64,000 nucleotides of DNA from Octopus vulgaris (taxonomy: Eukaryota): NCBI GenBank assembly GCA_951406725.2, contig OX597814.1, positions 136,772,001 to 136,836,000 of the forward strand, read 5' to 3'. This document shows positions 637-46,156 of the stretch, piece by piece; the first letter of the stretch is position 1, and every line of letters begins with the position of its first letter. The notes below the pieces were generated by a model. It did not search any database and was not told the origin of the DNA. It saw only the letters and a program-made list of their open reading frames with translations. Both the position numbers and the translations under genes were made by a program.

Positions 637-821
637 TGCGAAACAAGGTGAAAAATTAATAGTCGAATTCCGGAGGTAGAGTAATATGTTTTATTAAAAA
701 GCAGCAAAAATGCCTCAAAGACTCAGAGTTTCACGTTCCCGTTCGTCGGACAGTTTTGTTTAGATTTTGTTTAGTGAAACTCTGAGTAACAGTATTTGTG
801 ATATCTTTGCTGCTTTTTAAT
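637..821 (-). mobile_element. PLE-like tail with fold-back inverted repeat (arms 693-734 and 774-821)
   Basis: ATTAAAAAGCAGCAAA...ACTCAGAGTTTCAC is the reverse complement of GTGAAACTCTGAGT...TTTGCTGCTTTTTAAT, with a small deletion in the left arm. Confidence 0.6.
720..797 (-). ncRNA. Minimal hammerhead ribozyme motif split across the two arms of a fold-back
   Basis: The minus strand reads AAAACTGT-CCGACGA-AC(GGGAAC)GT-GAAA-CTCTGAG-T. The plus arm keeps GAAA-CTCTGAG-TA-ACAGT, which restores helix I (ACTGT/ACAGT). Confidence 0.6.
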
Positions 822-827
822 GATGAT

Positions 828-1084
828 GACCCCCTTCGGTCAGACACTGACCATGGGTTTGCACCTAGAGAGTTACCCTCTGAGGCACAAGTCTGGGCAA
901 GGTTGTTTTATAGAAGACCAGCAGTCGCCCATGCATGCCGGCCTCCCCTCTCCACGTCACCGATGTTGTCCAAGGGAAAGGCAAGGGCCGATACAGCTTG
1001 GCACCTATGACGTTGCAACTCATTTCTACAGCTGAGTGAACTGGAGCAACGTGAATTAAAGTGTCTTGCTCAAGAACACAACAC
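828..1084 (-). mobile_element. tRNA-derived SINE, family C, 5'-truncated
   Basis: Colinear with copies at 1918-2204 and 43549-43883. Confidence 0.85.
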
Positions 1085-1726
1085 TTTTTAATAAAGTGTA
1101 TATAAATATATATGTCTGTGTGTGTTGTGTGTGTGTGTGTGAGAGAGAGAGAGAGAGAGAGAGAGTGTGTGTGTGTGTGTGTGTGTATGTACAGAAATAC
1201 ACGCACACACACACTCACTCACACACACTGACATCTATCTATCTAATTAGCTATTTATCAGTTTCTCTCTCTCTCTGTCTCTCTCTCTCTCTCTCTCTGT
1301 CTCTCTCTCTCTCTCTCTCTCTCTTTCTCTTTCTGTCTTTCATCGATCTATCTATCTATCTATCTACCTATTTGTATATGCGTGTGTATAAAAATTTGAT
1401 TTTAGAAACGAGAGAAATAAAATTCAATACATAAAACAGAGTATTTATATTTTTTTCTTACTCGAGGAGTGACATAGACTTAAGAGCGTACAGTTTCACG
1501 CCAATGATAAGTGCTCTGGCACTAAACTGTAGACCCCTTGAAACAGCGTCGCTCCTGAATTAATGAAAAATATATCAGTGTATGCGTTCGTAGGTTCCGC
1601 TTTCAATCTGACTCTATGGCAACTTGGGAAAATGGTCATCCACTATAGCTCCGAGGTGAACAAAGTTTTGTGAATGGATTTCGTAGACGATAACAGAATG
1701 AATACCCACGTGTGTGTGTGTGTGTG

Positions 1727-1883
1727 TACTAGCGTAGCTAGAGTGTGTGCCGCCCGGGGCCGACCTTCAGTTTCCGACCGCGGGCCCCACGAAAAAAAAA
1801 TTTGCTTACAGCAAACTCCATAAAAGTGCCGCCCGAGGTGGACCGCCCCCTCCACCCTCTTGCTCCCTCTGGCTAAGCTAGTG
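1727..1883. mobile_element. GC-rich hAT-like MITE nested in the (TG)n of a SINE
   Basis: 17-bp TIRs TACTAGCGTAGCTAGAG / CTCTGGCTAAGCTAGTG (3 mismatches) and internal GTGCCGCCCG twice. The TSD is obscured by (TG)n. Confidence 0.6.
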
Positions 1884-1917
1884 TGTATGTTTGTATGTAC
1901 GTATGAACGTGCGTATA

Positions 1918-2204
1918 GGGTAAATACCCCACTTCGGTCATGATTGACCGTGAGTGAGTTTGCACAAGTCCGGGCAAGGTTGTTTGTGGAAAAACCAGCA
2001 GTCGCCCATGCATTCCAGCCTCCACTTCTCACTGCCGTTGATGTTATCCAGCTTGGCACCAGTGACGTCGCTACTCATTTCTACAGCAGAGTGAACTAAA
2101 GCAACACGAAGTAAAGTGTCTTGCTCAACAACACAACACACAGCCCGGTCCGGAAATCGAACTCACAACCTCATGTAACTGTTCTAACCACTAAGCTATG
2201 CGCC
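1918..2204 (-). mobile_element. tRNA-derived SINE, family C
   Basis: Minus-strand head GGCGCATAGCTTAGTGGTTAG (A box) and GAGTTCGATTTCC (B box); the body matches the other family C copies. Confidence 0.85.
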
Positions 2205-3515
2205 ATATATGCGCGCGCGTGCACTTGTGTGTGTGTGTGTGTGTGTGTGTGTGTGTATGTGTGTGTGTGTGTGTGTATTAGTGTGTCTGCGTTTGTATTT
2301 GCCCTCCACCACCGCCTTGACAACCATATAAGTGGTTCAGCAAAATGGAACGGTAGAATAAATAGCAAGCTTAAAAATAAGTATCGGGGTTTGTTTGTTT
2401 GACTGACCCCTTCAAAGTGCTGCCCCAGTATGGCCGCAGCAATCCAAAAACTGAAATAAATAATTGACAAAAGCTAAAGGATATATGTGTCTATGTAAGT
2501 GTATGCGTGTATGTAAACTAAAATATTCAATGAAAGATGAGTTCATATACACGTATACGCGTGCCTAAGTATGTGTGTTTAATTAATTCTAACTGTGTAA
2601 TATCGTTTCTTTTATATAAGCGTTTGACCCTAAAATATTGATGCATACACTTATACACACGCGAGCACACATGCAGATACATGTGTGTCTGTGTTTATCT
2701 GCCTGTGTCTATCGTATTATTTCTTACATATATATACATACGTTTATGCCTCTGTATGTGTATGCATGTGTGTATTCGTATGTATATATACTGCATATGT
2801 ACTCCTATGCCTAGACACATTTATATCCAAACAGAGATACAATCATCGCATATTTGAATACCTTCTATCGCGCCAGTTTTGTGTCGTTTTTTTATGCATA
2901 CACGTATATGCATCTACAACTATATGTATATATATGTAGATGTACACAGGTACATACACATACATTTACACACAAAGTCAGATACTTTGAAATGAATATA
3001 TATTCATGTCCACTTTTAGCATTGCATATTCAGTAAACACCAATAAGATTTCCATTAAGCCAAATCAATCAAACTCTTGTTCGGGACCTATAAGAGTTGG
3101 GTCTTTGCTGGTACATATGTCCCAGAACATTAAAAGTGAATAAGGGTCCTTTAAGTGCCTAGCAGATCCTTTCTTAAAAACCTTCCTCCCCTACATCGTA
3201 CACTTGTGATCTCTCGCCCTTGAGATCTTGGCAAAAGCATAGCTCTTAATATCAGCGACGGGTATAAGAACCACTTAGCTACTTTGTCCATATGTCAGCA
3301 CTATATGTCTGTCATTTCTAGAATTGACGTTTCTTTATAATAGCACAAAAGATGCTCTCTCCCTCCAAACTGCATTCTTTTAATACTGGCCGCGCCAAAA
3401 TGTCGAGTTAAGCCTTTAACCTTCTCTTTTCTGTACATTAACGATCTACTCATTTTCTATCCTATCTAACAACTCAGGCCTATACAGATATTATCACCCT
3501 TCACTACATCTTAAT

Positions 3516-43883: not shown

Positions 43884-43965
43884 AATAATAATAATAATAA
43901 TAATAATAATAATAATAATAATAATAATAAGAAGAAGAAGAAGAAGAAGAAGAAGAAGAAGAATT

Positions 43966-44173
43966 TCTACTAAAGGAACAACCCTGAAATTTGGGAAGAA
44001 GGGACAAGTCGACTATATTGAGCCCAGTGCGTAACTGGTACTTAATTTATCGATTCCGAAAGGATGAAAGGCAAAGTCGACCTCGCCGGAATTTGAACTC
44101 GGTACGTAGCGGCAGAGGAAATACCGCTAAGCATTTCGCCCGATGTACTAACGATTCTGCCAGCTCACCGCCT
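43966..44173 (-). mobile_element. SINE family B
   Basis: Reverse complement of the family B consensus. Confidence 0.88.
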
Positions 44174-44237
44174 TAATAATAATAATAATAATAATAATAA
44201 TAATAATAATAATAATAATAATAATAATAATAAAATA

Positions 44238-44890
44238 AATCATATTATCTCTAGCTGCCCAGTCCTGGCTAAGAAGGAATATATTCACAGACATGACAGA
44301 GTTGGAACCTACATACATTGGAAGCTATGCCAACATTATGGAATAACAACAGAAAAAAGATGGTATAGGCACACACCAGAAAAGGTCACAGAAAACGAGA
44401 AAGCAGCCATACTCTGGGATATGCCGATACACACAGATAGAGAAATTAAGGCCAACAGACCAGATATAGTTGTCAGAGATCATGAAGAAAAAAAAATGCT
44501 TTCTAATTGATGTATCAATACCAGCAGATGACAACGTGTCTCTAAAAGAAATGGAGAAACTCTCAAAATACAAAGACCTGGAAATAGAGGTAACTAGAAT
44601 GTGGAATCTGAAAACAGAAACAATTCCTATCATAGTAGGTGCATTAGGCATGATAAAAAAATATTCAGACAAATACATAACAAAAACACCAGGACTTACA
44701 AACACATATAACATACAGAAAATTGCACTACTAGGCACTGCACACATCCTACGCAGAACACTTTCCATACAATAACCATCAGAGCATCACAACAAATCAC
44801 AGCACATACCCAAGGCACACAGAGCTGCGCTCGGTAGTGAAGTGAAAGCACGCTATAAAAATAAAACTACTGAATAAAAATAATAATAAT
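44238..44890 (+). mobile_element. 5'-truncated R4/Dong-like LINE (RLE domain) in (TAA)n
   Basis: HIISSCPVLAKKEYIHRHD...ILWD...NRPDIVV...LIDVSIP...EKLSKYKDL...IIVGALG; one frameshift in an A run; ends in TAA repeats. Confidence 0.92.
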
Positions 44891-44891
44891 A

Positions 44892-45310
44892 AAGTACCAG
44901 ATAATTGACTTTACAGTCCCAAATGATGAAAAAATTAATATGAGAGGTATAGAAAAAATAGCAAAGTATCAGGACCTAGCTATTCAATTACAGAGACTAT
45001 GGAAAGTGCGGGTAAAATGTGTCCCAGTAGTTATAGGTACATTGGGAACTATCCCTAAATATCTGAACAGATGGATAGAGGAAATAGGCATAAGACCCAG
45101 TTTAGTACAGCTCCAGAAAACAGTGTTAACAGGGACAGTTAGGATACTTAAGAGGGTTCTTGGCATCTAAGGTTACTGGTTGCAAACCAATAGGAAGATT
45201 CTTGGCATCTAAGGCTACTTGTTGTAGCCCGATGTTAGGATTCTTTTCTTTTTCAACAGTCTAATCTGTTGAATGTATATGAAAATAATAAATAAATAAA
45301 TGAATAATTA
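44892..45310 (+). mobile_element. Second, different R4/Dong-like RLE 3' fragment
   Basis: IIDFTVPND...EKIAKYQDL...VPVVIGTLG...LKRVLGI*; short duplication TTCTTGGCATCTAAGG; TAA/TAAA tail. Confidence 0.88.
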
Positions 45311-46111
45311 CAATGATAATGCAAAGGGGTCGAAGCCAGTACTGACTGGTGTTTTATTTGTAGATCAATAGGACAGAAAGACAATATTGACCTCGCTGGG
45401 ATTTGAACTCATTGGAAAGATCCGATGTGCAACTAAGTCTGTCAAATCACCGCCTTAATTCCCTCAACCAGATCAACTAAAAGATCGGGGTCCAGTTATC
45501 AAAATGTTATTAAAAATACGCTAACCTGAAAAATATAGCTAAATTTGTTGAATGTTAATAAGCTTAAACTCTAAACTTTAGCATCATATATATTTCTTTA
45601 CTACCCACAAGGGGCTAAACATAGAGGGGACAGACACACGGATTAAGTCGATTACATCGACCCCAGTGCGAAACTGGTACTTTATTTATCGACCCCGAAA
45701 GGATGAAAGGCAAAGTCTACCGTGACGTCGTGCGATGCTGTGTTATATATATATGCACAAAAATGCACACACAAACACACACACATATATGTATTATGTA
45801 ATGTATGTATGTGTATATATATATATATATATATATACTGAGAGAGGGAGAAAGATAGACAAATGATTAGATAGATAGATAGATAGATAGATAGATAGAT
45901 AGATAGATAGATAGATAGATAGATAGATAGATAGATAGATAGATAGATAGATAGATAGATAGATATTAGAAATGGGAGCAGTATTAATACCGAACAGCCA
46001 TCTTTGTATCCTACTCAACGTGGATGAATTATTAGAATGCCGAATACTACGGTATTCACCTTCAGAGATCTCATAGAGATGCTAATATCGTTAGCAGACG
46101 AGAACCGTACA

Positions 46112-46156
46112 GACCACTGAGGAAGCGCAGTACACTGAAATCACGTGATCTAGCAG
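46112..46156 (+). ncRNA. Minimal hammerhead ribozyme motif, canonical core
   Basis: CCA-CTGAGGA-AGCG(CAGTA)CACT-GAAA-TCACGTGA-TC-TAG: 10-nt palindrome ATCACGTGAT, with single mismatches in helices I and II. Confidence 0.72.

Follow-up and report, generated by a model that had tools for sequence, protein, structure and literature searches.

Six loci in the window, as we call the whole 64,000-nucleotide stretch of Octopus vulgaris DNA analysed here, are members of dispersed repeat families with predicted type-I hammerhead ribozymes of a known kind. With good probability they arose by retroposition from the 3' ends of two Penelope-like elements (PLEs) and of what are likely four more PLE or PLE-derived families, whose type-I hammerheads are predicted to cut element RNA as dimers. 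Loci and families are named below by their position in kb.

Hammerheads in the window and in its repeat families

All the places given for the motifs by the first-pass annotation were confirmed (Table 1), as was its statement that the loci have no flanks in common, the best cross-match being 24 nt (E 6e-4). Only one of its seven motifs, that at 34.15 kb, is intact as a single copy. At 0.75 kb, the minus arm has a break in the 3' strand of helix I, and the core is missing from the plus arm (776-793); the plus-strand copy at 30.4 kb has a single mismatch in helix III; both arms at 39.2 kb are damaged; and the 46.1 kb copy has mismatches in helices I and II. An apparent 4-bp helix I at 39.2 kb was rejected as an artefact of the inversion junction in the window copy, the family having 3 bp. 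At 31.1 kb, in an AT-rich family, helix II (10-11 bp) encloses a loop of roughly 90 nt. Since most of the window copies are damaged, and those at 0.75, 30.4 and 39.2 kb are predicted to fold with their inverted arms into long hairpins, they probably do not function as ribozymes.

Table 1. Features of the window, in order of position.
Feature	Position	Strand	Remarks
Short element, ~155 nt, with inverted 5' arm lacking the tail	620..830	-	outer bounds approximate
0.75 kb hammerhead	720-757	-	C3-G8, C4, helix III ACUC-U-GAGU
Seventh hammerhead, absent from the first-pass annotation	6126..6168	+	U3-A8, helix III AUAU, U17; old repeat family
30.4 kb hammerhead, inverted arm	30416..30448	-	A3-U8; position 16.1 mutated in window copy
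30.4 kb hammerhead	30478..30510	+	A3-U8; family helix III ACCGGU, 2-bp helix II, 4-bp helix I
31.1 kb hammerhead	31111..31243	-	canonical core; helix III ACAGCUGU, 3-bp helix I
PLE copy, 5'-truncated	32762..34378	+	about 99% identical to the 4,271-bp element
34.15 kb hammerhead, intact	34151..34195	+	C3-G8, derived C4, U10.1-U11.1, helix III AGUACU, A17, 5-bp helix I
Short element, ~190 nt, with inverted arm lacking the tail	39131..39430	+	outer bounds approximate
39.2 kb hammerhead, inverted arm	39198-39235	-	
39.2 kb hammerhead	39243-39281	+	U3-A8, extra nucleotide 5' of helix II, helix III AAUU, U17, 3-bp helix I
46.1 kb hammerhead	46114-46156	+	canonical core; helix III AUCACGUGAU

An Rfam scan of the window gave no hammerhead among the 150 of 184 matches listed, only microsatellite-driven miRNA matches. 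A strict descriptor, which most window copies fail, matched twice (at 34156 and at the previously unlisted 6133); 60 window shuffles averaged 0.12 matches, one of them reaching two, and the reversed window gave one. The window by itself is weak evidence for hammerheads, and such counts might suggest chance matches in AT-rich, hairpin-rich DNA. It is the repeat families that decide.

At least 40 matches were found in the genome for every one of the six loci. In the family majority sequences helices I-III are restored, which gives a hammerhead of type I whose helix III is short and palindromic. The five helix III palindromes named earlier were correct, and the sixth, ACUC-U-GAGU of the 0.75 family, is quasi-palindromic. 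Majorities and per-copy tallies alike have the core N3-Y4-G5-A6-N7-N8-A9, then GAAA and UH, with the three helices in order. Among 30 central copies per family, strictly intact hammerheads number 30 (34.15), 20 (39.2), 7 (30.4), 7 (0.75), 5 (6.13), 3 (46.1, one of them belonging to another family) and 0 (31.1, where the loop exceeds the descriptor's limit). Genome-wide matches of the 46.1 family are centred on the hammerhead itself, and family copies end rather sharply on the 3' side, 150-350 nt past the motif. In the off-centre flanks (468,708 bases), the same type of descriptor found 22 matches, against none in reversed sequence and 0-2 in each of eight shuffles. Copies inside one family decay neutrally, and the covariation signal lies between families. 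Chance matching is refuted by the family majorities, the flank counts and the unconstrained 3-8 tally given below, and its probability is negligible.

Autonomous elements and short families

The first-pass annotation proposed a large, diversified set of PLE ribozymes, mostly as ORF-less tails. A large and diverse set of the PLE type is indeed present, and a link to PLEs themselves is shown for the 34.15 and 30.4 families, but a PLE ORF is not shown for the 0.75, 31.1, 39.2 and 46.1 families. The full 34.15 element is 4,271 bp long, with a 775-aa RT/GIY-YIG ORF and the hammerhead in its 3' UTR; the truncated window copy retains the RT end, a CX4CXXC linker, GIY-YIG and the 3' UTR, its hammerhead lying about 500 nt downstream of the ORF. 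The element occurs in tandem arrays, where two neighbouring units are identical, and a 4,301-nt wrap-around contig is equally compatible with a tandem array or a circle. RT with a C-terminal GIY-YIG lies upstream of the hammerhead in 23/30 loci of the 34.15 family and 16/30 of the 30.4 family, and in the latter 16 the ORF shares the hammerhead's strand and ends ~250-400 nt before it. Conversely, 30 GIY-YIG loci chosen blind to RNA had a same-strand downstream hammerhead with U3-A8 in 12 cases and with A3-U8 in one.

For the remaining families, a search with a profile from Neptune-like proteins only, in which some queries favoured hairpin copies, found a PLE ORF within 1.5 kb upstream in 0/30 loci each (0.75, 31.1, 39.2, 46.1, 6.13 and G3-C8, the last a young family of 464 exact copies found by the flank scans). 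PLE ORFs beside one copy of the 6.13 family (L202) and one of the G3-C8 family (L224, L289) were rejected as separate insertions. To speak of ORF-less tails is correct only in part: two families, 0.75 and 39.2, start 12-17 nt 5' of the core and look like short non-autonomous elements.

Could the ORF-less families (0.75, 39.2, 31.1 and 46.1) have arisen outside the PLEs, as MITEs or as independent hammerhead SINEs or retrozymes moved by another element? The lack of linked ORFs would fit, as would the MITE-like hairpin layout with (TA)n flanks and the fact that no tail common to the short families and the sampled autonomous PLEs was found. Such an origin is nevertheless very improbable, given that the arms are unequal, the tail is one-sided, the inversion point differs between copies, and the hammerhead architecture is the same as in the ORF-linked families. 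As for tandem monomers of the retrozyme type, the matches listed for the short families are mostly dispersed, and tandem arrays among them are few. In the G3-C8 family, the inverted arm falls short of the direct arm by 53 nt or more in 11/11 cases, which is the one-sided PLE 'tail' of PMC8557442. Inverted arms end at 62-71 nt in 21/30 copies of the 0.75 family and have bimodal ends in the 39.2 family, both distributions being blurred by microsatellite and by arm assignment.

The 3-8 pair and predicted cleavage as dimers

Positions 3 and 8 form a pair that is part of the hammerhead active fold. The earlier tally of this pair (C-G in four loci, A-U in one, U-A possibly in one) holds at family level: per 30 loci, C-G was found in 22 (0.75), 28 (31.1), 30 (34.15) and 26 (46.1), A-U in 28 (30.4) and U-A in 30 (39.2). 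The pair is Watson-Crick in all eight families tallied copy by copy, and since the flank scans added the G3-C8 family, all four forms are present. With positions 3, 4 and 8 left unconstrained, 42/49 matches, GIY-YIG-locus flanks included, were Watson-Crick at 3-8 versus 5/22 in shuffles; the 49 are not independent, being grouped in about 15 families. As about 10 of these 49 flank matches have the canonical CUGANGA core, counts from descriptors that demand CUGANGA or YUGANRA are too low, which bears out the prediction that core variants would escape a CUGANGA search. In helix I, two A3-U8 families differ by a compensatory change (UGUC/GACA vs UAUC/GAUA).

What has kept these folds? That a pair of the active fold covaries through all four forms is an argument for selection on catalysis, and the four-way use of the pair suggests that the cutting shape has likely been kept by evolution. 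On the other hand, the fold could be kept as a signal for protein recognition or RNA folding, or be hitch-hiking, with a cleavage that is slow or that transposition can do without. In the 34.15 family, the youngest autonomous one, 40/40 copies are identical in having U4C, whereas U4 is found in related organisms and in an older sister copy; the change is a recent one, in an element that is still amplifying. U4C lowers hammerhead activity in vitro (PMC3088659). The 5' ends of G3-C8 copies have no pile-up at the cut site (3/30 start at positions 54-65) in a sample of 43 candidates skewed to divergent copies and with 5/30 loci at one duplicated place. In an anole element, likewise, insertion in vitro was unaffected by ribozyme mutants and no reads ended at the cut site (PMC11167929). 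Against this stands the Watson-Crick pairing in every tallied family and in all four forms, at a pair that belongs to the active fold (PMC3088659). A role as signal or passenger is rather improbable.

Retroposition of PLE 3' ends with dimeric cleavage remains the preferred reading. PLE hammerheads cleave as dimers, with low activity in vitro (PMC4209133), and protein-assisted cleavage is on record, as is rescue by the double change C3G/G8C (PMC11167929). Here, the palindromic helix III (quasi-palindromic in the 0.75 family) is too short for a monomer: in isolation none folds, while the energies computed for the duplexes of dimers lie between -12.9 and +2.2 kcal/mol, with AAUU (+2.2), AUAU (+1.6) and AAUAUU (-0.2) being marginal. 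A head-to-tail array would be transcribed, two palindromic helices III would pair, and the cores would cleave after N17, probably with the help of the PLE protein. Same-strand partners exist in the tandem arrays of the 34.15 family and for no window copy. Reverse transcription would then begin near the 3' tail and often stop early or invert, leaving solo and hairpin copies; source elements would be under selection to retain the 3-8 pairing as their scattered copies decay. Several results count against this model: the element that amplifies most actively has fixed U4C, with its lower activity in vitro; no PLE ORF was found upstream in six families (0/30 each); 5' ends of G3-C8 copies do not cluster at the cut site; the anole ribozyme mutants still inserted in vitro; and three of the dimer helices are marginal. 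The question touched here is that of cutting in vivo by the weak hammerheads of PLEs (PMC4209133, PMC8557442, PMC11167929), and the young 4,271-bp element, which has just fixed U4C and has relatives with U4, offers a ready-made natural experiment on whether transposition depends on the rate of cleavage.

Comparison with known systems

PLE motifs, U3-A8, solo copies and opposite-strand pairs are already known (PMC4209133). The minimal PLE hammerheads and small-palindromic-helix-III variants described there by Cervera and de la Peña (2014) resemble ours in being type I with a short palindromic helix III, in lacking a clear loop-loop contact, in the optional extra nucleotide 5' of helix II, in the common U17, in U3-A8 families, in the predominance of solo copies and in the pLTR location. 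In their supplementary alignment, however, position 3 is C or U only and position 4 is U, whereas here there are whole A3-U8, G3-C8 and C4 families. Among the natural core variants of Perreault et al. 2011, the available part of the text includes U3-A8, U4C (in a viroid) and U10.1-U11.1, all found here as well, and does not mention natural A3-U8 or G3-C8. The literature searched, with the main survey (Lünse et al. 2017) outside its scope, yielded neither natural A3-U8 or G3-C8 families nor any cephalopod PLE hammerheads. It is conceivable, if somewhat short of an even chance, that these abundant natural families with all four 3-8 pairs include the first natural G3-C8 and A3-U8 ribozymes and provide direct evolutionary evidence of active-fold selection in PLE hammerheads, the G3-C8 carrier being a 205-nt hammerhead-headed PLE 'SINE'.

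Non-LTR retrozymes (PMC7229834; bioRxiv 10.64898/2026.07.22.740005) are also short non-coding PLE-related repeats with a type-I hammerhead, but they form tandem repeats and circular RNA, whereas most copies of the present short families are scattered, as singles or hairpins, and carry the hammerhead at their 5' end. Finally, the autonomous element is like Neptune/Nematis-type EN+ PLEs (PMC8557442) in layout, with RT, a C-terminal GIY-YIG and a CX2-5CXXC linker, and like them occurs as tandem and inverted insertions with microsatellite flanks; unlike them, it has a separate 454-aa ORF1 in another frame.

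Hammerhead motifs and their repeat families

Taken alone, the window (G000:C1:136,772,001-136,836,000, in a microsatellite-rich genome of 2.8 Gb) is weak evidence for hammerheads. A strict descriptor (core, helices I-III, GAAA and UH) matched it twice; 60 shuffles averaged 0.12 matches, with one of them reaching 2, and the reversed window gave one match. The seven motifs of the first-pass annotation were all borne out in position on re-reading, and cross-comparison of the loci revealed no shared flanking homology, as had been claimed. By the strict descriptor only the 34.15 kb copy is intact among them, the second match being a new motif at 6133. 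The copies at 0.75, 30.4 and 39.2 kb form long hairpins with their own inverted arms. Hammerheads were absent among the matches listed in an Rfam scan of the window, which also holds what we take, from translations, to be a decayed LINE (endonuclease, RT) and mariner/Tc1-like transposase fragments.

Each window locus has at least 40 genomic matches, and at 46.1 kb the hammerhead itself is the centre of these matches. Across the 30 loci fetched per family, the majority sequences bring the helices back, a conservation on which the first-pass annotation had made its reading depend. Positions 3 and 8 pair as C-G in the families at 0.75 (22/30 loci), 31.1 (28/30), 34.15 (30/30) and 46.1 kb (26/30), as U-A at 6.13 (28/30) and 39.2 kb (30/30), and as A-U at 30.4 kb (28/30), with exceptions that are single, scattered changes; C4 is present in 28 of the 30 loci at 0.75 kb and in all 30 at 34.15 kb. 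Motif density was likewise to be set against shuffled and reversed sequence: across 468,708 bases of flank outside the query matches, 22 motifs fitted the descriptor, against none in the reversed sequence and 0-2 in each of eight shuffles. With positions 3, 4 and 8 unconstrained, a scan of 686,501 flank bases returned 49 distinct matches (19 U-A, 13 C-G, 6 G-C, 4 A-U and 7 mismatched), which are not independent because they belong to about 15 families and some lie in the flanks of GIY-YIG loci; five shuffles gave 22 matches, 5 of them paired at 3-8. The annotated feature is real and its kind, an already known one, was correctly named.

The G3-C8 family and other families with no ORF detected

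The six G-C matches represent a young family outside the window (identity 96-98%, motif passing the strict descriptor at 25 of 30 loci), whose 45-nt motif has 464 exact copies in the genome and none in the reversed control. The start of the element, about 22 nt before the core, held when copies were picked through their 3' half: 9 of 30 reach position 1 and the others begin further in. By eye, none of these copies has sequence in common with another upstream of that start, and no autonomous partner was found.

With a profile of Neptune-like proteins only, no upstream ORF was detected in the 0.75, 6.13, 31.1, 39.2, 46.1 kb or G3-C8 families (0/30 each). The 0.75 kb, 39.2 kb and G3-C8 elements are about 155-205 nt long and start ahead of the core by about 17, 12 and 22 nt, respectively, the first two values coming from queries biased toward hairpin copies. 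Their inverted arms lack the 55-65-nt tail, which is the PLE signature in PMC8557442, and we infer that these three families are non-autonomous PLE derivatives. By eye, the first 6-8 nt of the 39.2 kb and G3-C8 elements are complementary to the tail-junction sequence, possibly an inverted-arm remnant.

Positions of elements and coding fragments in the window and in fetched genomic loci (L)
Feature	Position	Strand	Remarks
454-aa ORF1 of 4,271-bp PLE	L211:3358-4722	-	other frame, overlaps RT ORF
G3-C8 element, example	L117:2688-2890	-	~205 nt, non-coding, start ~22 nt before hammerhead
LINE or mariner/Tc1-like fragment	window 13234-15215	+	presumed from translation
LINE or mariner/Tc1-like fragment	window 22249-22659	-	presumed from translation
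LINE or mariner/Tc1-like fragment	window 44097-44786		presumed from translation
LINE or mariner/Tc1-like fragment	window 46292-46660	-	presumed from translation

Families linked to PLE proteins

Two window families have ORF links. The 34.15 kb motif belongs to a 4,271-bp element, some 500 nt downstream of its GIY-YIG ORF. The element codes for a 454-aa ORF1, without a match in a Pfam search, and a 775-aa RT/GIY-YIG ORF, in which the RT profile match scores 29.5 bits (cut-off 29.6); named relatives of the protein are for the most part from bivalves, which makes a mollusc the probable host, and the genome looks octopus-like. Each of the 40 scored matches has 100% identity, and several copies stand in tandem, with zero differences between two adjacent units. 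Position 34157 reads T in contigs from two other organisms, in their main copy, and also in the best-matching organism, there in a minor contig; U4 stands in an older sister copy within this genome as well; C4 is therefore recent and has not stopped amplification. At window 33000-34340, 77-96% of sampled words are common to runs of four organism labels, and the element was therefore recently active in related species, or transferred. Further C4 cores in other families (L092:516, minus strand; L199:243, plus strand; L258) are single copies, some beside same-family U4 copies, and may be decay.

In the 30.4 kb family, 16 of 30 loci have same-strand PLE coding remains upstream of the motif; by tblastn the count is 12 of 30. 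Among 30 GIY-YIG loci, 12 have a downstream same-strand U3-A8 motif, one of these with an open 781-aa frame, and one has A3-U8. L253, L271 and related loci make up a second, apparently active PLE family with 781-aa open frames and a U3-A8 hammerhead (helix III ACAUGU). A tree built from 20 protein fragments, with L289 excluded for its shortness, groups the six A3-U8 loci in a single clade (97/96) beside U3-A8 lineages, one neighbouring lineage of which shares their ACCGGU helix III. The tree does not settle the branching order among the A3-U8 and U3-A8 lineages; a double change from U-A to A-U is the likely history.

Cleavage and known hammerheads

How might these motifs be cleaved? Dimers formed through the palindromes would be predicted to cleave in tandem transcripts, probably with the assistance of protein; AU-only palindromes would support dimers weakly. 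In 30 G3-C8 copies the 5' ends do not accumulate at the cut site, which speaks against dimer cleavage, as does the fixed U4C of the 34.15 kb element.

PLE hammerheads have been described as solo copies and as pairs on opposite strands, with U3-A8, an extra nucleotide and dimers of low activity (PMC4209133); U3-A8, U4C and U10.1-U11.1 occur naturally (PMC3088659); and cleavage is helped by protein and rescued by engineered C3G/G8C, with insertion unaffected (PMC11167929; see also PMC6765202, PMC6155905, PMC3884650, PMC6466107, PMC7229834 and bioRxiv 10.64898/2026.07.22.740005). Natural A3-U8 or G3-C8 was not found in the literature searched; the largest survey, Lünse et al. 2017, could list them. 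The alignment in the accessible part of PMC4209133 lacks A3, G3 and C4, whereas this genome has families with each. That abundant natural families between them use all four 3-8 pairs may be new, as may a natural U4/C4 pair within an active element.
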